A stretch of DNA of 64,000 nucleotides from assembly GCF_003334405.1 (NCBI RefSeq), contig NZ_QOWM01000002.1; one strand, 5' to 3'. Origin of the DNA: Escherichia coli (GTDB lineage: Bacteria > Pseudomonadota > Gammaproteobacteria > Enterobacterales > Enterobacteriaceae). The notes under the pieces are model-generated. The model was not told where the DNA came from and did no database searches. It worked only from the letters and a program-made list of their open reading frames with translations. Shown one piece after another: positions 4,509-48,778 of this stretch (positions within the stretch are counted from its first letter, which is position 1; each line of letters begins with the position of its first letter). The position numbers and the translations under genes were made by a program.

Positions 4509-4595
4509 TGCCGAGGTGGTGGAATTGGTAGACACGCTACCTTGAGGTGGTAGTGCCCAATAGGGCTTACGGGTTCAAGTCCCGTCCTCGGTACC
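4509..4595 (+). tRNA. leuU: tRNA-Leu, anticodon GAG
   Basis: Cloverleaf readable: acceptor GCCGAGG/CCTCGGT, anticodon loop CTTGAGGT, long variable arm, 3' ACCA; sits 13 nt after the secG stop. Confidence 0.88.
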
Positions 4596-8378: not shown

Positions 8379-8455
<77 letters not shown>

Positions 8456-8577
8456 CTTTCCCTTAGAGTCCTTTTTCAAATATACTGTGAAGACTTCGGC
8501 CTTCGTAGTGGGATTTGAAAAAATCCTTCTGGAAAGTGCTCCAGACCGCAGTTGCGGTTATAGGGTTCAGTTATATA

Positions 8578-8606
8578 AAGCCCCGATTTATCGGGGTTTT
8601 TTGTTA
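8578..8606 (+). terminator. Rho-independent terminator after metY
   Basis: aaaGCCCCGATttatCGGGGttttttgtt. Confidence 0.5.
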
Positions 8607-8661
8607 TCTGACTACAGAATAACTGGGCTTTAGGCCCTTTTTTTATGTCTTGGGGGTGGGC

Positions 8662-13337: not shown

Positions 13338-13420
13338 TTCCATGCGGGATAAGGCGTTTACGCTGCATCCGGCATGGATTGCCTGATGTGACGCTGGCGC
13401 GTCTTATCAGGTCAACGTGA
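13338..13420. repeat. REP-like palindromic units between infB and rbfA
   Basis: gcgggataaggcgtttacgctgcatccggca and gcctgatgtgacgctggcgcgtcttatcaggtc resemble REP consensus. Confidence 0.45.
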
Positions 13421-39642: not shown

Positions 39643-40398
39643 TTAGGTGTTAATTAAACAAATAAAGTTACTGTGCAGCCATAAAAATGAAGCCGGGATA
39701 GCGGTAGAGACTTTAGCCGTGAGAAAACGATCTGTCGCATCCTGCTTTCCTTCGCCAGTCACCAGTAACAAAACTTCGCGGGCATTGAGAATATCCTTCA
39801 GGCCTAAGGTGATCCCACGAGTCACGGGGCGACCCGCGGTTTTTAACATCTCATGTTGCTGTGTTCTGGCATCAAGTTGACTGATATGGCAGGCCGGTTG
39901 CAGGCTTTCTCCCGGTTCGTTCAGCCCAAGATGACCGTTTTTCCCCAATCCGAGAACGCATAAATCCAGACCGCCTTTGCGCGCAATCAGGTTCGTTACC
40001 CGTTCGCACTCTGTCTCATTTATCTCTTCGGAGCGAAAGCTGATGAGCTGGTCTTCACGTAGCCCCAGCGGCTGCACGATATGCTGTTGCAGGAAAGTTT
40101 CGCAGGTGCCTGGCATCGTTAATGGCAGATCCACCCATTCGTCGAGCTTCACGAAGGTGAGCTGGCTGACATCAACCTGCTGCTGGTGGATTTTTTCTAC
40201 CAGATAATGATACGTCAGTAATGGCGTGGCTCCGGTCGCCAGGCAAATCACGGCATTCGGTTTGCTACGGATCACGGCCAATAAATATTCGCTGGCACGT
40301 TCACTTAACGCCGTATAGTTTTCAACTTGCTGAAGGGTTTGCACAGGATGAAATTCCTTAAGTAAAGAGGCACCACCAGACGCAGTGCCTCGTTCCAT
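39643..40398 (-). CDS. agaI: galactosamine-6-phosphate deaminase/isomerase (NagB-like)
   Basis: 251-aa ORF; last gene of the aga operon. Confidence 0.88.
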   Translation of the reverse strand: MERGTASGGASLLKEFHPVQTLQQVENYTALSERASEYLLAVIRSKPNAVICLATGATPLLTYHYLVEKIHQQQVDVSQLTFVKLDEWVDLPLTMPGTCETFLQQHIVQPLGLREDQLISFRSEEINETECERVTNLIARKGGLDLCVLGLGKNGHLGLNEPGESLQPACHISQLDARTQQHEMLKTAGRPVTRGITLGLKDILNAREVLLLVTGEGKQDATDRFLTAKVSTAIPASFLWLHSNFICLINT

Positions 40399-41190
40399 TT
40401 ACAAAATGCCGAATGCGGAACAAACAATAGAGAGCATAAAAGTCACGCCGATTAACAGCACCGGATGCGCTTTTTTCACCCGCAGGAAGTAATACATCAG
40501 CAGGGTGTAGGCCATCGGTAAAATGTTCGGGAAGACTTTATCGAAGAAATCCTGCTGCAGCGCAACGCTGTGGGTATTGTCGATGGCAAACGATGTCACC
40601 ACGTTAATATGCACATACGAAGCGATCAGCCCGCCGATTACCGTGATCCCGAGGATGGTTGCCGAACGGGCAATCATCTGCGAGTTCTCTCGCACTTTAT
40701 CGATCGCCTTCACGCCGACTGAATAACCGACGTGGGTCCAGCCGACGCGCAGGAAAAAGATAAGCAGGTAAACGGCGAAAAATAGAATCGGCCCCAGCAG
40801 GTTTCCCTGGCTGGCAAATGATGAGCAAATTCCCGCCATAATCGGCAACAAAGTAAACCAGAAAATCGCATCGCCAATCCCGGCGATTGGGCCAAACAGT
40901 GCCACTTTGAGGCCTTTAATGGTGTCGCGGTTTTCTCCTTTTTCTTCCATCGAAATTAATAACCCCATCAGGAATCCGACCAGATTCGGGTGGGTATTAA
41001 TAAATTCGAGGTTATCTTTCATCGCCGCGCTTAAGCCCGGTTTGTCGTCCTTATAAATCTTTTTCAGGATCGGCAACATCGCCCAGGTAAAACCGCCCGC
41101 CTGCATCCTTTCGTAGTTAAAGCTCGCTTGCAGCAGCGACGAACGAAAGCCCAGACGGGTGATATCTTTTTTACTGATTTCAGATCCCAT
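40399..41190 (-). CDS. agaD: PTS mannose-family EIID component (galactosamine)
   Basis: Track ORF 40399..41337 trimmed to MGSEISKKDITRLGFRS. Confidence 0.88.
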   Translation of the reverse strand: MGSEISKKDITRLGFRSSLLQASFNYERMQAGGFTWAMLPILKKIYKDDKPGLSAAMKDNLEFINTHPNLVGFLMGLLISMEEKGENRDTIKGLKVALFGPIAGIGDAIFWFTLLPIMAGICSSFASQGNLLGPILFFAVYLLIFFLRVGWTHVGYSVGVKAIDKVRENSQMIARSATILGITVIGGLIASYVHINVVTSFAIDNTHSVALQQDFFDKVFPNILPMAYTLLMYYFLRVKKAHPVLLIGVTFMLSIVCSAFGIL

Positions 41191-41983
41191 TGCTGTAGTC
41201 CTCTTCTTCATTTTTACTGGCAACGGGCTGCGGTTGCGCTTGCTGCCGGGATTTCGCATTGAAAAACTCATACACCGCAAAGCCTGCGCCCAGTACGGCA
41301 ACCGGCAACAGGTTGCTGACCTGGATGTAGCAAACAAACAGGAAACCGGCGATCAGGTAAGGGATATATTGCGCTTTGAACATTACGCGCAGCAGCAAGC
41401 CAAAACCAACGGCAGGCAGAATACCGCCAGCCACTTCAAAGCCGTGGGTCAGCCAGGCGGGCATCGCTTTCACCAGCGCCTGCATCGCCCCCTGTGCCAG
41501 GTAAGTACAGAGGAAAGCAATCACCGCATACGCTGAAGCGACGATGAGCATCGTTGTCCAGTTAAGCCGGGAAAACGCTGCCGTATCCGCCTCTTTCGCG
41601 CATTTATCGGCTTTGGTCATAAATAATGAGAAAGCGGAATAGAAGAACAGAATGACGTACTGCATTAACAAACTAAACGGCAGGCCAAGACCAATTGCTG
41701 TTTTGGCATCAACGCCCGTAGACCATGCAATGACGGTGGTCATCAGACCCGCCATAATCGGGTTGGGCGGCTGAACACCACCTGCAGGGGTTAATCCGGC
41801 GAAAGCCAACTCTGTCAGACCACCGGTAATTAAGCCAGTCTGAATATCACCGAGAATAGCGCCAGTTAGGGTACAAACGATTATCGGGCGGAATAAAAAT
41901 AAGGCTTCCAGCCAAAAATCAATCCCCAGAACAAAAACTAACGCCGCCAGGGATAATCCCTGAAGTAGGGTTATTTCATGCAT
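41180..41983 (-). CDS. agaC: PTS mannose-family EIIC component (galactosamine)
   Basis: 267-aa membrane ORF; overlaps the agaD start. Confidence 0.88.
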   Translation of the reverse strand: MHEITLLQGLSLAALVFVLGIDFWLEALFLFRPIIVCTLTGAILGDIQTGLITGGLTELAFAGLTPAGGVQPPNPIMAGLMTTVIAWSTGVDAKTAIGLGLPFSLLMQYVILFFYSAFSLFMTKADKCAKEADTAAFSRLNWTTMLIVASAYAVIAFLCTYLAQGAMQALVKAMPAWLTHGFEVAGGILPAVGFGLLLRVMFKAQYIPYLIAGFLFVCYIQVSNLLPVAVLGAGFAVYEFFNAKSRQQAQPQPVASKNEEEDYSNGI

Positions 41984-42021: not shown

Positions 42022-42498
42022 TTAGTCAGGGATTTGTTCTTTTTGATCGCCAGGGACGTCCTGAATGAAAACATTCACGCCACGTTGTTTAATAAAACGT
42101 AAGTCCGTGAGATCCTGGTCATCGACATAAACTTTACTGCTGATTTGCTTTTTCCCTTCCGAGAAATGCATATTGCCGACGTTGACATCTTTCAGGTCAA
42201 TACCACCTTCTACCAATTTACGTACCGTTTGTGGCGTACGGCAAATCAGGAAGATCTTCTGATGTGGTGCAGCTTTGCCGATGACGTTAATGGTTTTTTC
42301 GATAGTAAAGAAACGAATGCCAAAGCCGTAGGTTTCCGCGGTAATACCCATTAATTTCTGTTGAATATCATCGTTAGCGACAACATCATCCACGACTACC
42401 AGCAGATTTGCACCGATGGTGGATGTCCAGGTCACGCCAACCTGACCGTGAACCAGACGGTTATCAATACGGGTTAAGAGAATATTTGGACTGGTCAT
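42022..42498 (-). CDS. agaB: PTS mannose-family EIIB component (galactosamine)
   Basis: 158-aa ORF; phosphorylatable His context NRLVHGQV. Confidence 0.88.
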   Translation of the reverse strand: MTSPNILLTRIDNRLVHGQVGVTWTSTIGANLLVVVDDVVANDDIQQKLMGITAETYGFGIRFFTIEKTINVIGKAAPHQKIFLICRTPQTVRKLVEGGIDLKDVNVGNMHFSEGKKQISSKVYVDDQDLTDLRFIKQRGVNVFIQDVPGDQKEQIPD

Positions 42499-42664: not shown

Positions 42665-43537
<873 letters not shown>

Positions 43538-44692
43538 TTATGCCTGCCACGGATGAATGATTACGCCTTGCACCACGCGGTTAACGGTGCCACTGGCTGA
43601 TGGGGTATCCGGCGTATTGCCCATGTGCAGCGACTGCATCAGTGCAAACGTCTGGGCGTACATCAGGAAGCAAAATGCCTGCTCAACGTCGATAAAGTGA
43701 CGTGACGGTGGCAGGATGATATGTGGACCGGCAGCGACGATGTCGCTGCTTTCCGCGGCGATGGCGATTACACGCATTGCCTGGTTGTCACGGCGAAGTT
43801 CAGCCAGCAGATCAAGATCATACTGACGGGTGTAAGGGTGGCTGGAGACAAATACCACCACCAGCGTTTCGTCATCGACCAGCGATTTTGGTCCATGACG
43901 GAATCCGGTTGGAGAATCATAAAAGGCCGCCAGTTTACCCGCCGTCAGTTCCAGCACTTTCAGCGCCGACTCGCGTGCTGCGCCCTGTAAGCCACCGCTA
44001 CCGAGATAAACGATCCGTTTCCACGGTGCGTAACCAAACACACCTTCGCTGAAATCGCCCAGTGAGGTCAGGATCGCCTGGCAACGATCCGCCACGTCGC
44101 GGAAGGTTTGGCTGTTGATCGTCTCAGGTGCGAAAACCGCGAGGCAGCTGGCCATCATGGTGGTAATGCTGCTGGTCATCGCAAAGCCGCGATCGTGCGT
44201 TTCTGCGGGCATCAGCAGGGCAAACGCGTTATCGCTGTTGATCGCGTTTTGGTAAAGAGCGCCCGCTTCGTTGCAGGTGATCGGCAGGTGATAGCATTCC
44301 GGTACAAATTGATTTGCCAGTTCCACGGCTGCGACGCTTTCCGGGCTGTTGCCGGATCGACCGAAGGAGATCAACAGCAGCGGATGAGCTGGGTTCAGGT
44401 AGTCCATCGGATTGGTGACCAGATCGGTGGTCGGTACGGCGCTGAAGTTTTTACCGGTATGGCTGGCGAGCCACGGCGCGATGATGTCACCGATAAATGC
44501 CGACGTTCCGGCTCCGGTCAGGATGATCCGCAGATTCTCTTTGCGCAGTAACGGTTCAAGGAAGTTATTGAGCGCGGAACGTAGCGCGTCGATGTTGGTG
44601 AGTGAACGGATCCATGCGCGAGGCTGATGGCGGATCTCTTCTTCAGTCCATGTACCGGTTGCGGCGGCAGCAGGGGTGTAATTTTCTGGCAT
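43538..44692 (-). CDS. agaS: SIS-domain sugar-phosphate isomerase/deaminase AgaS
   Basis: 384-aa ORF with tandem SIS domains. Confidence 0.9.
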   Translation of the reverse strand: MPENYTPAAAATGTWTEEEIRHQPRAWIRSLTNIDALRSALNNFLEPLLRKENLRIILTGAGTSAFIGDIIAPWLASHTGKNFSAVPTTDLVTNPMDYLNPAHPLLLISFGRSGNSPESVAAVELANQFVPECYHLPITCNEAGALYQNAINSDNAFALLMPAETHDRGFAMTSSITTMMASCLAVFAPETINSQTFRDVADRCQAILTSLGDFSEGVFGYAPWKRIVYLGSGGLQGAARESALKVLELTAGKLAAFYDSPTGFRHGPKSLVDDETLVVVFVSSHPYTRQYDLDLLAELRRDNQAMRVIAIAAESSDIVAAGPHIILPPSRHFIDVEQAFCFLMYAQTFALMQSLHMGNTPDTPSASGTVNRVVQGVIIHPWQA

Positions 44693-44729
44693 AACTCAAT
44701 CCTTAGTCTGATGAACTTGACGTCGGGCG

Positions 44730-44880
44730 TTGTCGCTTTCACTTGCCTTTCGTTTCATTTCACTTGGTGATGTCTTTCGTTGATTAAAATCTATAGAAAA
44801 GAAACTGAAAGTTCAATGGAGAAAAAAGAAATAAAACGAAATTTGTGATCGTTGAAAGAAAAGATAAAGGAAGCAAAAGG
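44730..44880. promoter_or_regulatory. agaS promoter region with DeoR-type (AgaR) operator-like repeats
   Basis: Repeated CTTTCGTTTCATTTC / GAAACTGAAAG / AAACGAAAT motifs upstream of agaS. Confidence 0.4.
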
Positions 44881-44884
44881 GATT

Positions 44885-44990
44885 GCTGGATGCGGCGCAA
44901 ACGCTTTATCCGGCCTTGCGGTCACCAACTGTAGGTCGGATAAGACGCGTTAGCGTCGCATCCGACACCGCTGCACAGATCAAAACGAAA
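44885..44990. repeat. REP-like palindromic units between agaA and agaS
   Basis: gatgcggcgcaaacgctttatccggcc and gtaggtcggataagacgcgttagcgtcgcatccgaca. Confidence 0.5.
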
Positions 44991-45042
44991 GAAAAAGAAA
45001 GGCCTTACGGGGGAAGTGAAGGCCCAATAAAGGAGCAAACTA

Positions 45043-46176
45043 TCAAAACGAAGCTAATTGACCCTGAATCCAGATTTGTTGCACATGTAGCCCGCTATCC
45101 AGCGCAACGACGCTGGCGCGTTTGCCCGGTTTAAGCGATCCCAGAACACCATCAACACCCAGCATTCGCGCCGGATGCAGCGACGCCATATGGATGGCTT
45201 CCGCAGGCGTTACGCCCGTCAACTCGACCATATTGCGCACTGCCGCATCAACAGACAGCGTACTGCCCGCCAGCCCACCAGACGCGGTACGGACAACGCC
45301 ACCGTGCATCTGCACTTCTTCACCACATAACGTATAGCGACCATCCGGCATCCCAGCTGCCTGCATCGCGTCGGTGATCAGTACGATTCTCTCTTTCGCA
45401 CAGCAACAACACAGCGACATTGCCGCCGGATGCACATGATGACCATCGGCTATCAGTTCCAGCCAGGCGCGCTTGTCCGTTAATCCCGCGCCAACCATTC
45501 CCGGTTCGCGGTGATGTAAACCTGTCATCCCGTTATAGCAATGCACCAGGCCGTCGGCACCAGCATCAAATGCGGCGCGGGTTTGTTGCCAGGTCGCCGC
45601 GCTATGCCCCAGCATCACCCTTACGTTTTGCTGTTTAAGATGGCGGATGGCCTGCAATGCCCCTTCTTTTTCCGGTGCCAGCGCTACCACACGTAAGGTG
45701 TGCTGAGAAACGGCAATCAACTGATCCAGCTCGGCAATTTCAAGCTCGCGAAACAACTCCGGCGGATGCGCGCCTTTATTCTGCGGCGTGAAGTACGGTC
45801 CTTCGAGATAACTCCCCAGCACTTGCGCACCAGGTCCGCCGCGTTGGCAACGTTGAGCAATACGTTTCAGCGCCGCATGAATGGTATTAAGCGGCGTGGT
45901 TACGGTGGTCGGTAACCAACTGCCGACACCTTCGCGTGCCTTGTGCATTGCCAGCTTGTCGAGTACATCCGGCGCGTCATCCATTACATCAACGCCCGCA
46001 CCACCGTGTACATGGGTGTCGATGTAAGCAGGGCAGAGCAGTTCCGCATCGCGTTCAGTCACGCCCGCTGGAATCGGTTCGATTGCTGCGATGACACCGT
46101 CAGCAATACGCAACTGATGGTCATCGAGCCATCCCTCTTCAGTCAGCAGCCTTCTGGCGCGCAGAACGTGTGTCAT
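45043..46176 (-). CDS. agaA: N-acetylgalactosamine-6-phosphate deacetylase, full length
   Basis: Track ORF 45043..46197 trimmed to MTHVLRARRL; metal-binding HVHGG near the N-terminus; not truncated as in K-12. Confidence 0.86.
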   Translation of the reverse strand: MTHVLRARRLLTEEGWLDDHQLRIADGVIAAIEPIPAGVTERDAELLCPAYIDTHVHGGAGVDVMDDAPDVLDKLAMHKAREGVGSWLPTTVTTPLNTIHAALKRIAQRCQRGGPGAQVLGSYLEGPYFTPQNKGAHPPELFRELEIAELDQLIAVSQHTLRVVALAPEKEGALQAIRHLKQQNVRVMLGHSAATWQQTRAAFDAGADGLVHCYNGMTGLHHREPGMVGAGLTDKRAWLELIADGHHVHPAAMSLCCCCAKERIVLITDAMQAAGMPDGRYTLCGEEVQMHGGVVRTASGGLAGSTLSVDAAVRNMVELTGVTPAEAIHMASLHPARMLGVDGVLGSLKPGKRASVVALDSGLHVQQIWIQGQLASF

Positions 46177-46607
46177 ATTCCTTCCTCGACCGGACATTCT
46201 TCATGGCAGCGGCCTAACTCGTCCACCAGACTGGTCAGCCCTCGGTGTCCACACTCCAGCGCCTGTACACGGAATTCTTCACCGCTTAACCCTTCGCGCT
46301 CCAGCACCATCTCCAGTAGCAGTTGCAAATTGGTGCCGGTGATCACTTCACAGCCCGGTTTTTGCATCGCCAGCGTTGAAGCTACGCGAAACGGCGTGCC
46401 GCCCAGCAAATCCGTCAGAAAAACAATGCCGTCTTCACAATCCAGTTGGGCGATGGCCTCTTCAAGCTGCGATGTAAGCAGCGCGGTGCTTGAGGTTTCC
46501 GGAAAATCGATGGCGATAAACTGCGATTGCTCACCGAGAATTTGCTTCATTGCTTTTTCCATGCCGCTGGCAAACCCGCCATGCCCTGTCAAAATAATAC
46601 TTAACAT
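46173..46607 (-). CDS. agaF: PTS mannose-family EIIA component (N-acetylgalactosamine)
   Basis: 144-aa ORF starting MLSIILTGHGGFASG; this gene is absent from K-12. Confidence 0.85.
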   Translation of the reverse strand: MLSIILTGHGGFASGMEKAMKQILGEQSQFIAIDFPETSSTALLTSQLEEAIAQLDCEDGIVFLTDLLGGTPFRVASTLAMQKPGCEVITGTNLQLLLEMVLEREGLSGEEFRVQALECGHRGLTSLVDELGRCHEECPVEEGI

Positions 46608-46624
46608 CTAATACCTCATTGTAT

Positions 46625-47509
46625 TTAAAGGAAATGGCAGAATTTACCGACGATGCCGAGAACCACGGTAACTGCAATCAGACGCAGCGGACTCCAGCCG
46701 CGGCGTACCAACCAAAACATGGTCAGGGTGTAGACCAACGGTAAGAAGGCCGGCATCAGTTTGTCGATAACATCAGCCTGTAACTTAACCACTGCGTCGC
46801 CCGCCGTGATTTCCAGCGTGGTGCTTAAACGAACATAGGTTGCCACCAGCGCACCGATTACCGTCATCCCAACGATAGACGCAGCATGGCCGACTTTTTT
46901 GGTATTCGCTTTAATCAGTGGAATCGCCGCCACGCCCATGCGGTAAGCATAATGCGCCAGACCAAAACGCAGCCCCAGGTGTACCACGTTGAACAGCACA
47001 ATAAAGACGACTGCGCCAAGAATGGAGCCTTGCAATGCCAGACTGGCTCCAATCCCGCCACAAATCGGCAGTAGCGTTAGCCAGAACATTGCATCGCCAA
47101 TCCCGCCAAGCGGCGCACCGACGGCAATTTTGGTGCTCTGAATACTGTTAACGTCCTGCTTAGAACGCTCCATCGCAAGGATAATGCCGATAACAAACGT
47201 CACCAGAAACGGATGGGTATTGAAGAAACCCATATGCCCCTTCATGGCGCGCGCCAGGTCGCGTTTATTAGTGTGGATCTTTTTCAGAGCAGGCAGCAGA
47301 CCGTACAACCAGCCAGAAGCCTGCATACGTTCGTAGTTAAAAGACGCTTGTAACAGCATGGAACGCCAGGCGACGCGGTTGATATCTTTTTTCGTCAGCT
47401 CCGCGCCAATGCTCTGATCTTCATACACGTTTTCATTGACGCCAGTCAGCAATGTTTCTTCGTTTTCACTGACGTTCGGCAGGGTGGTTTGATTAGATGC
47501 CATCTTCAA
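46625..47509 (-). CDS. agaE: PTS mannose-family EIID component (N-acetylgalactosamine)
   Basis: 294-aa ORF homologous in layout to agaD; absent from K-12. Confidence 0.85.
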   Translation of the reverse strand: MKMASNQTTLPNVSENEETLLTGVNENVYEDQSIGAELTKKDINRVAWRSMLLQASFNYERMQASGWLYGLLPALKKIHTNKRDLARAMKGHMGFFNTHPFLVTFVIGIILAMERSKQDVNSIQSTKIAVGAPLGGIGDAMFWLTLLPICGGIGASLALQGSILGAVVFIVLFNVVHLGLRFGLAHYAYRMGVAAIPLIKANTKKVGHAASIVGMTVIGALVATYVRLSTTLEITAGDAVVKLQADVIDKLMPAFLPLVYTLTMFWLVRRGWSPLRLIAVTVVLGIVGKFCHFL

Positions 47510-48272
47510 ATTCCTCTTTCTGTGCCGCAGGTTGAGTCGGTTCAGGAGATTTACGCAGCAAGTCGATCAGCGCCATCGCCAGCGCAGCGGCAGCAATAGC
47601 CAGCACTGGTAACTTGAGCCAGGCGGCGGCAACAAAGCCCAGGATGAAGTAGGGGATGTAGACGTTTTTCATCATGATTTTCAGCAGCACGGCAAAACCG
47701 ATTGCTGGCATGATGCCGCCCGCGACGCCGAGGCCGTCGATTAATCGTTGCGGCAGGACATCAATGATGGTTTTTGCATGTTCCGCGCCGAAGTAGATAG
47801 GCAGGAAAGCGCAGAGAAAATAGAAAATGCCGAGTGCCAGCAGTGCCAGATAGTTCACGCGTTCAATGCCGCGAGTATCGGCGTTCTCCGCCATCCGGTC
47901 GCAGCGAGACATCACGCCGGACATCACCGAGAACAGGAAGGTAATCCCCATCTGTACTGCGACAGCGAAAGGTACGGCGACACCTACTGCGACATCGGGT
48001 TTCACGCCAGTAGTAATGGCAAACGCCGTGCCGACGATAGTACCGATAATCACGTTAGGCGGCTGTGCGCCCGCCAGCGGGGCCAGCCCCATCCACACCA
48101 GTTCCAGCGTACCGCCGGTTAAAATTCCGGTATGCAGATCGCCAAGTACCAGCCCGACCAACGGGCCGAGGACCACCGGGCGGTGCATATGGGTTAGGCC
48201 GTTAAACATATCCAGGCCAGCGATAAAGGCGATAATGCCCAACGCAAATGCCTGCAACAGGCTGATTTCCAT
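47493..48272 (-). CDS. agaW: PTS mannose-family EIIC component (N-acetylgalactosamine), full length
   Basis: 259-aa membrane ORF; truncated in K-12. Confidence 0.85.
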   Translation of the reverse strand: MEISLLQAFALGIIAFIAGLDMFNGLTHMHRPVVLGPLVGLVLGDLHTGILTGGTLELVWMGLAPLAGAQPPNVIIGTIVGTAFAITTGVKPDVAVGVAVPFAVAVQMGITFLFSVMSGVMSRCDRMAENADTRGIERVNYLALLALGIFYFLCAFLPIYFGAEHAKTIIDVLPQRLIDGLGVAGGIMPAIGFAVLLKIMMKNVYIPYFILGFVAAAWLKLPVLAIAAAALAMALIDLLRKSPEPTQPAAQKEEFEDGI

Positions 48273-48282
48273 GATGAATCCC

Positions 48283-48756
48283 TCAAAGTAATTTAAAGAG
48301 GTCCACAGCAGGCTCTGTCGGGACGCCCTGAACGAAGCATTCCACCCCAGCGGTTTTCAGGTCGTTAAATGCTGCGATATCGCCCGCATCCACAGAAACC
48401 GTTTTGGCGATTTGTTGTTTGCCATTGGCGTAGTGCATATTGCCAACGTTAATGCGATTCACCGGAACGCCACCTTTCACCAGCGTCAGGAAATCGGCGG
48501 GTGTTTTACAAACCAGCAGGATTTTCTGTCGATCGGCGGCGCGATGAATGTTGTCGATAACTTTTTGCAGCGTCCAGAAACGTACGGCGATCCCTTCTGC
48601 CAGTACCATTTCCATCAGGTTTTGTTGTACCGGATCTTCGGCAACCTCATCGTTGGCTACCAGCACCAGATTTGCCCCCGCAAATCCGACCCATTGAACG
48701 CCGACCTGACCGTGAATCAAGCGTTCATCAATCCGGCTTAAAACAATATTTGGCAT
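48283..48756 (-). CDS. agaV: PTS mannose-family EIIB component (N-acetylgalactosamine)
   Basis: Track ORF 48283..48792 trimmed to MPNIVLSRIDERLIHGQV. Confidence 0.85.
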   Translation of the reverse strand: MPNIVLSRIDERLIHGQVGVQWVGFAGANLVLVANDEVAEDPVQQNLMEMVLAEGIAVRFWTLQKVIDNIHRAADRQKILLVCKTPADFLTLVKGGVPVNRINVGNMHYANGKQQIAKTVSVDAGDIAAFNDLKTAGVECFVQGVPTEPAVDLFKLL

Positions 48757-48778
48757 AGCGTGTTCCTCTTTGTTTTGC

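Follow-up and report, generated by a model that had tools for sequence, protein, structure and literature searches.

The 64,000-nucleotide stretch of DNA analysed here (the window) very probably carries a complete aga/gam regulon of the ancestral type, with 13 genes, from a relative of K-12 and E. coli C that is predicted to be Aga+ and Gam+, the deletion seen in K-12 being the derived state. None of this is unusual or new, both the complete regulon and the K-12 deletion having been in the literature since 2000. The finding has little discovery value, RefSeq annotates the aga/gam genes routinely, and its practical use lies in annotation, including the statement that the window DNA does not come from a laboratory strain of K-12.

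The preliminary description had placed full-length agaW, agaE, agaF and agaA genes between agaV and agaS, and we indeed found all four there as uninterrupted minus-strand open reading frames (Table 1). They belong to a run of 13 uninterrupted and intact genes, from agaI at 39643 to agaR at 51117, that comprises agaR, the divergent kbaZ-agaVWEFA operon and then the agaS-kbaY-agaBCD-agaI operon. No internal stop codons occur in the reading frames of the regulon, and identical sequence is annotated in RefSeq without pseudogene flags. The agaA and agaF genes overlap by 4 nt (ATGA). The length of 294 aa given earlier for AgaE holds for the longest open reading frame, which opens at an upstream TTG, but not for the gene, which has 292 codons from its ATG; the NCBIfam AgaE model covers residues 1-292 of 292. 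For agaA, the longest frame opens at an upstream ATG and has 384 aa, and the RefSeq annotation of identical sequence has 377 aa.

Table 1 Features of the aga/gam regulon and of the K-12 deletion in the window.
Feature	Position	Strand	Description
agaI	39643-40398	-	second operon, intact; no internal stop
agaD	40399-41190	-	second operon, intact
agaC	41180-41983	-	second operon, intact; codon 8 is Gln
agaB	42022-42498	-	second operon, intact
kbaY	42665-43525	-	second operon, intact
agaS	43538-44692	-	second operon, intact
agaA-agaS spacer	44693-45042		three AgaR-box-like sites: 44744-44767, 44822-44845, 44981-45004
agaA	45043-46176	-	N-acetylgalactosamine-6-phosphate deacetylase, 377 aa; PGAP label 'nagA'
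GGTCGC, left copy	45592-45597		6-bp direct repeat at deletion end-point
Segment missing from K-12	45598-47902		2305 bp; base-by-base comparison with K-12 NZ_CP043185.1
agaF	46173-46607	-	EIIA common to the Aga and Gam PTS transporters, 144 aa
agaE	46625-47503	-	EIID, N-acetylgalactosamine PTS, 292 aa from ATG; 11-nt overlap with agaW
agaW	47493-48272	-	EIIC, N-acetylgalactosamine PTS, 259 aa; ATG start, frame uninterrupted
GGTCGC, right copy	47897-47902		6-bp direct repeat; a single copy kept at the K-12 junction
agaV	48283-48756	-	EIIB-Aga, 157 aa; second gene of kbaZ-agaVWEFA operon
kbaZ	48779-50059	-	426 aa; first gene of kbaZ-agaVWEFA operon
Divergent agaR/kbaZ control region	50060-50307		three AgaR-box-like sites: 50091-50114, 50173-50196, 50268-50291
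agaR	50308-51117	+	DeoR-family repressor of the regulon, 269 aa

Orthology was called for the four proteins when their scores exceeded the curated NCBIfam equivalog cut-offs, and all four passed: AgaW with 410.5 bits against a cut-off of 300 (NF040757), AgaE with 617.6 against 500 (NF040760), AgaF with 219 against 130 (NF040761) and AgaA, in a full-length match, with 290 against 225.65 (TIGR00221, nagA). In AgaF, His9 aligns with the GTHG-motif histidine of E. coli IIA-Man (1pdo/1vrc), which we take to be His10. AgaA aligns end to end with solved structures of the NagA deacetylase, and its putative metal-binding HxH motif, DTHVHGG, stands opposite DIHIHGG of Bacillus subtilis NagA (2vhl). The segment is a real conserved gene set: annotated E. 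coli genomes match the 4.3-kb stretch that holds the four genes with 100% identity.

Base-by-base comparison confirmed the earlier statement that K-12 has lost agaE and agaF and retains truncated agaW and agaA. The missing 2305 bp take in all of agaE and agaF and cut 134 codons off the end of agaW and 193 off the start of agaA; owing to the repeat at the junction, the deletion can equally be placed at 45592-47896. K-12 has no full-length frames here and is annotated instead with two pseudogene fragments, agaW' and agaA'. The agaW'-agaA' fusion junction of the K-12 allele, TTGCCAGGTCGCAGCGAG, is not in the window, which has the full 2305 bp in its place. Brinkkötter et al. in 2000 reportedly described the deletion as site-specific recombination. 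The 2305-bp loss is a derived event between the two GGTCGC hexamers; illegitimate recombination at short homology or slippage during replication would account for such a pattern, a route suggested by the 6-bp repeat only. The 2.3-kb deletion has been described before and renders K-12 Aga- Gam- (PMC3668189, PMC9628945). With the exact end-points and the GGTCGC repeat, the K-12 allele can be tested for cleanly by PCR or in silico.

The agaWEFA segment is present in 4931 of the 5426 complete E. coli genomes (about 91%), and the K-12 junction in 371 genomes of this set. All junction carriers inspected (60 listed and 5 sampled) are K-12 laboratory derivatives; MG1655, C600, J53, DH5alpha, DH1, NCM3722 and JM83 are among them. 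The intact segment is thus the default state of the species, from which laboratory K-12 departs through the known deletion. Being the default, the presence of agaWEFA is unsuitable as a lineage marker, and the earlier inference of a lineage from the intact cluster is weak, since a segment found in so many complete genomes does not point to any one lineage.

We further examined the two control regions. The AgaR-box consensus is said to be that of Ray and Larson from 2004. The motif has 6 matches in the whole window, where 0.10 would be expected, and all of them fall within the agaR/kbaZ and agaA-agaS spacers. The sites in the agaA-agaS spacer mark what is predicted to be the promoter region of agaS. 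A scan of 44600-50400 for consensus promoters returned no more sites than shuffled sequence, and within that range no minus-strand site was found upstream of agaS or kbaZ; promoter placement here therefore rests on the AgaR boxes and the literature. The agaA-agaS spacer also holds a REP-like palindromic element (about 44885-44972), and bases 44930-44967 of this spacer match elsewhere in one genome that lacks the cluster.

The pathway set out here is drawn from the family assignments above and from genetic work published for E. coli C and O157:H7. AgaV (IIB), AgaW (IIC) and AgaE (IID), with the common IIA protein AgaF, would take up and phosphorylate N-acetylgalactosamine; AgaA, with NagA as a back-up, would deacetylate the resulting Aga-6-P to galactosamine-6-P, which AgaS would deaminate and isomerise to tagatose-6-P. 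After a further phosphorylation, tagatose-1,6-bisphosphate would be cleaved by KbaY/KbaZ. Galactosamine would be imported by AgaBCD with the same AgaF, and AgaR would probably repress both operons through the boxes in the two spacers. E. coli C is Aga+ Gam+ by experiment (PMC3668189). The Aga+ phenotype proposed in the preliminary description is a reasonable prediction, because the RefSeq protein accessions of AgaW, AgaE, AgaF and AgaA are those of the E. coli C proteins (WP_001326623.1 for AgaA). On this protein identity we predict the source strain to be Aga+ and also Gam+, the latter because agaF encodes the EIIA common to both transporters; the Gam+ prediction had been missed earlier. Both amino sugars, N-acetylgalactosamine and galactosamine, derive from mucin and should be usable by such a strain.

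Two other readings of the locus were weighed against an ancestral and functional regulon. A bare difference of presence and absence, and nothing further, would be equally expected if the 2.3 kb were an insertion gained by the source strain and K-12 had suffered no deletion. However, the truncated agaW and agaA of K-12 are continuous with the full genes, the segment occurs across divergent lineages at the frequency given above, neither mobile-element genes nor a break in composition was found in the window, and the K-12 junction is confined to K-12 derivatives among the genomes inspected. We consider an insertion to have next to no probability and rejected it, as K-12 keeps remnants of the genes. 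It is also improbable, though less so, that the strain is Aga- and/or Gam- despite its intact frames, through a point mutation or a defect elsewhere. There is a precedent for this in spinach-outbreak isolates of O157:H7, which are Aga- and carry a G91S change in AgaF that alone gives the Aga- phenotype (PMC4809568). In addition, AgaD carries a private missense change, V252M (position 40437; found in 0 of the 5426 complete genomes with a 99-bp query), which could affect galactosamine uptake only. Against this, Gly91 of AgaF is kept, as read from the translation, all proteins of the Aga pathway have identical alleles in other genomes, E. coli C included, the AgaR boxes are intact, the valine-to-methionine exchange is conservative, and AgaD is dispensable for Aga.

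For the origin of the DNA, the preliminary description had called the locus unlike K-12 and had suggested E. coli C, B or O157. The first statement holds for the deletion only: relative to K-12, the flanks around the cluster have 3 SNPs in 14 kb, and the window, the deletion aside, has 13 SNPs in about 61 kb. Identity of the window to K-12 and E. coli C is 99.95-99.98%. A B or O157:H7-type source, for which the intact agaWEFA of BL21(DE3), O157:H7 and O55:H7 might speak, has very little probability. The window is only 98.70% identical to BL21(DE3) (172 mismatches and 11 gap openings in an alignment of 14.1 kb) and 98.6% to O157:H7. Moreover, codon 8 of agaC and codon 72 of agaI are amber in O157:H7 (PMC3668189) but not in the window, and yhaV has an internal stop in BL21(DE3) and is intact in the window. 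Given a divergence of 1.3-1.4% and the absence of these lineage marker mutations, both sources were rejected. E. coli C (NZ_CP020543.1) is the member of the earlier list that fits: neither the 2305 bp nor the four genes show a single difference, and the window as a whole is 99.95-99.97% identical, but E. coli C is only marginally more credible as the source itself. About 20 or more differences separate it from the window. The AgaV allele of E. coli C (WP_081508768.1) is its own, whereas the window has the K-12 allele; its yhaC is broken by an internal stop, whereas that of the window (59258-60445) is intact; after rnpB it carries an additional copy of the 113-bp repeat; and it does not share the V252M SNP in AgaD. 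With several marker differences, E. coli C itself was also rejected.

Taken together, near-identity to K-12 and E. coli C and the divergence from BL21(DE3) and O157:H7 identify the source, on similarity over 64 kb, as a K-12/C-like strain, neither B nor O157, and it would be a close relative of both that was never struck by the deletion. Positions 1-25000 of the window are 100% identical in many phylogroup-A-like genomes and so cannot discriminate strains. It is possible, although we put this forward tentatively, that the source is a strain outside the 5426 complete RefSeq E. coli genomes, near-identical to K-12 over the 64 kb and with the ancestral aga genes kept, because of the private SNP in agaD. 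If this is true and the closeness extends genome-wide, the source would be among the nearest wild-type relatives of K-12, and the GGTCGC-to-GGTCGC deletion would have arisen very late, inside the K-12 lineage itself.

Compared with known systems, the window agrees with the regulon of E. coli C (Brinkkötter et al. in 2000; Hu, Patel and Mukherjee in 2013, PMC3668189) in its 13 genes, their order and their orientation, with AgaR-box-bearing spacers in both, and agaW, agaE, agaF and agaA (45043-48272) do not differ by a single nucleotide. For 12 of the 13 cluster proteins, E. coli C shares accessions with a genome that lies one SNP from the window, and the K-12 accessions for kbaZ, agaV, agaS, kbaY, agaB, agaC, agaI and agaR are likewise those of that genome. 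The agaVWEFA segment of O157:H7 is full length, as in the window; the O157:H7 strains EDL933 and Sakai are Aga+ Gam-. AgaW and AgaE match the Man/Fru/Sor IIC and IID subfamily models, where their scores do not reach the cut-offs, although they exceed those of the Aga-specific equivalog models, and the Aga proteins appear to be paralogues of ManXYZ and NagA with Aga/Gam specificity. AgaF can be aligned with IIA-Man, and in contrast to ManXYZ the IIA domain is a separate polypeptide that is common to two transporters.

The four genes agaW, agaE, agaF and agaA, which a preliminary description had proposed to be full-length, were indeed found uninterrupted on the minus strand, both in a six-frame ORF list and when each gene was translated in the frame annotated in an identical genome, and the interval it assigned to them, 45043-48272, is bounded precisely by the agaA stop codon and the agaW start codon. 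Its length for AgaE, 294 aa, is that of the longest ORF with an upstream TTG start; the product is 292 aa from the ATG. Translation of all 13 genes of the aga/gam cluster revealed no internal stops. The overlaps of agaW with agaE (11 nt) and of agaF with agaA (4 nt) are as expected for a single operon, and composition over the cluster region is unremarkable.

Genes and structured RNAs, in window coordinates
Feature	Coordinates	Strand	Remarks
tRNA	4510-4593		Rfam gathering threshold
tRNA	8379-8452		Rfam gathering threshold
rimP leader	8544-8644		Rfam gathering threshold
naRNA4	13343-13413		Rfam gathering threshold
S15 leader	14926-15040		Rfam gathering threshold
SraG	15270-15441		Rfam gathering threshold
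agaI	39643-40398		intact
agaD	40399-41190		intact
agaC	41180-41983		intact
agaB	42022-42498		intact
kbaY	42665-43525		intact
agaS	43538-44692		intact
agaA	45043-46176	minus	377 aa, uninterrupted; longest ORF 384 aa
agaF	46173-46607	minus	144 aa, uninterrupted
agaE	46625-47503	minus	292 aa from ATG, uninterrupted
agaW	47493-48272	minus	259 aa, uninterrupted
agaV	48283-48756		intact
kbaZ	48779-50059		intact
agaR	50308-51117	divergent from rest	intact
prlF-yhaV	51172-51971		intact; adjoins agaR
RNase P RNA	58381-58757		Rfam gathering threshold
yhaC	59258-60445		intact

In an NCBIfam search judged against the curated equivalog cut-offs, AgaW (410.5 bits versus 300), AgaE (617.6 versus 500, aligned over 1-292 of 292) and AgaF (219 versus 130) all scored above threshold. 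Unlike for these three, no Aga-specific equivalog model for AgaA turned up in this search, and AgaA scored 290 bits on TIGR00221 (nagA; cut-off 225.65). Solved NagA structures align with AgaA end to end, its DTHVHGG motif falling on DIHIHGG of B. subtilis NagA, and a solved IIA-Man domain aligns with AgaF, where His9 pairs with the GTHG-motif histidine. RefSeq/PGAP labels agaA as "nagA: N-acetylglucosamine-6-phosphate deacetylase" in all genomes inspected, though it is the agaA paralogue.

The proposed contrast with K-12, which is already in the literature and is nothing new here, was borne out by alignment, K-12 having none of these four ORFs at full length. The K-12 genome NZ_CP043185.1 (O16:H48) covered only 47% of the 4.3-kb query in two pieces of 100% identity, and its RefSeq annotation has a 5'-truncated deacetylase and a 3'-truncated IIC pseudogene. 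Base-by-base comparison revealed that exactly 2305 bp, window 45598-47902, are absent from K-12, which is thereby left without the first 193 codons of agaA (HxH motif included), all of agaF and agaE and the final 134 agaW codons. The "2.3 kb deletion" of the literature, to which K-12 owes its Aga- Gam- phenotype (PMC3668189, PMC9628945), matches this result. The window has GGTCGC at each end of the missing stretch (45592-45597 and 47897-47902) and K-12 has it once, at the junction, so the deletion can equally be written 45592-47896; such a 6-bp direct repeat would fit short-homology illegitimate recombination or replication slippage.

Of 5426 complete E. coli genomes, 4931 (about 91%) cover at least 80% of the 4.3-kb query at a single site, an upper bound on truly intact copies, as a few have IS insertions. 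The K-12 junction was spanned in 371 genomes, among which all 60 listed and all five sampled were laboratory K-12 derivatives, including MG1655, C600, J53, DH5alpha, DH1, NCM3722, RR1 and JM83. For the species, then, an intact segment is the default state, from which K-12 departs; its presence rules out K-12 and points to no lineage.

The earlier suggestion of a C, B or O157 lineage stood only for C; a B or O157 source was rejected. E. coli C (NZ_CP020543.1) is 99.95-99.97% identical to the window, with zero differences over 45043-48272 and only three in the entire cluster (40437, 44666 and 48423). The window is equally K-12-like, differing outside the deletion by 13 SNPs in about 61 kb and one fewer copy of a 113-bp repeat. 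BL21(DE3) carries the intact segment but is 98.70% identical to the window over 14.1 kb; O157:H7 has 98.6% identity, and its amber codons in agaC and agaI (PMC3668189) are absent from the window on translation. An internal stop interrupts yhaV in BL21(DE3) and yhaC in E. coli C, whereas yhaC and the prlF-yhaV toxin-antitoxin pair are intact here, so that both serve as helpful minor markers against a B or C origin. E. coli C itself was rejected as the source, as it has a private AgaV allele, the yhaC stop and an extra repeat copy. Window 1-25000 is 100% identical in many genomes.

From these family assignments and published genetics (PMC3668189), N-acetylgalactosamine would be imported and phosphorylated by AgaVWE with AgaF and the product deacetylated by AgaA, which NagA could replace. 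AgaS would then deaminate and isomerise it to tagatose-6-P, followed by phosphorylation and KbaYZ cleavage of tagatose-1,6-bisphosphate. Galactosamine would enter through AgaBCD with the same AgaF, both operons being presumably repressed by AgaR. All Aga-pathway proteins are identical to alleles of E. coli C and other genomes, and E. coli C has been shown by experiment to be Aga+ Gam+ (PMC3668189). AgaF retains Gly91; Ser at this residue is what renders the O157:H7 isolates of the spinach outbreak Aga- (PMC4809568). The sequence thus predicts an Aga+ strain and, beyond the preliminary claim, a Gam+ one. At 40437 the window departs by one base from K-12, E. coli C and CFSAN061761, changing agaD codon 252 from Val to Met; a 99-bp query centred there had no perfect match in the 5426 complete genomes, which places the source genome outside that set. 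This allele is either private to the source or a sequencing error, and the conservative V252M could bear on galactosamine uptake only.

A scan of the 64-kb window with the AgaR-box consensus attributed to Ray & Larson 2004 gave six matches against 0.10 expected, all in the agaA-agaS (44744-45004) and agaR-kbaZ (50091-50291) spacers. A REP-like palindromic element likewise lies in the 350-bp agaA-agaS spacer, at about 44885-44972, of which 44930-44967 matches another locus in a genome without the aga cluster. All Rfam matches at the gathering threshold are expected E. coli elements. Directly downstream of rnpB, the 113-bp tandem repeat (58735-59014, 2.5 copies), presumably the repeats already known to lie 3' of the RNase P RNA gene, has a terminator-like hairpin in each unit; K-12 and E. 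coli C each carry one copy more and are 113 bp longer.
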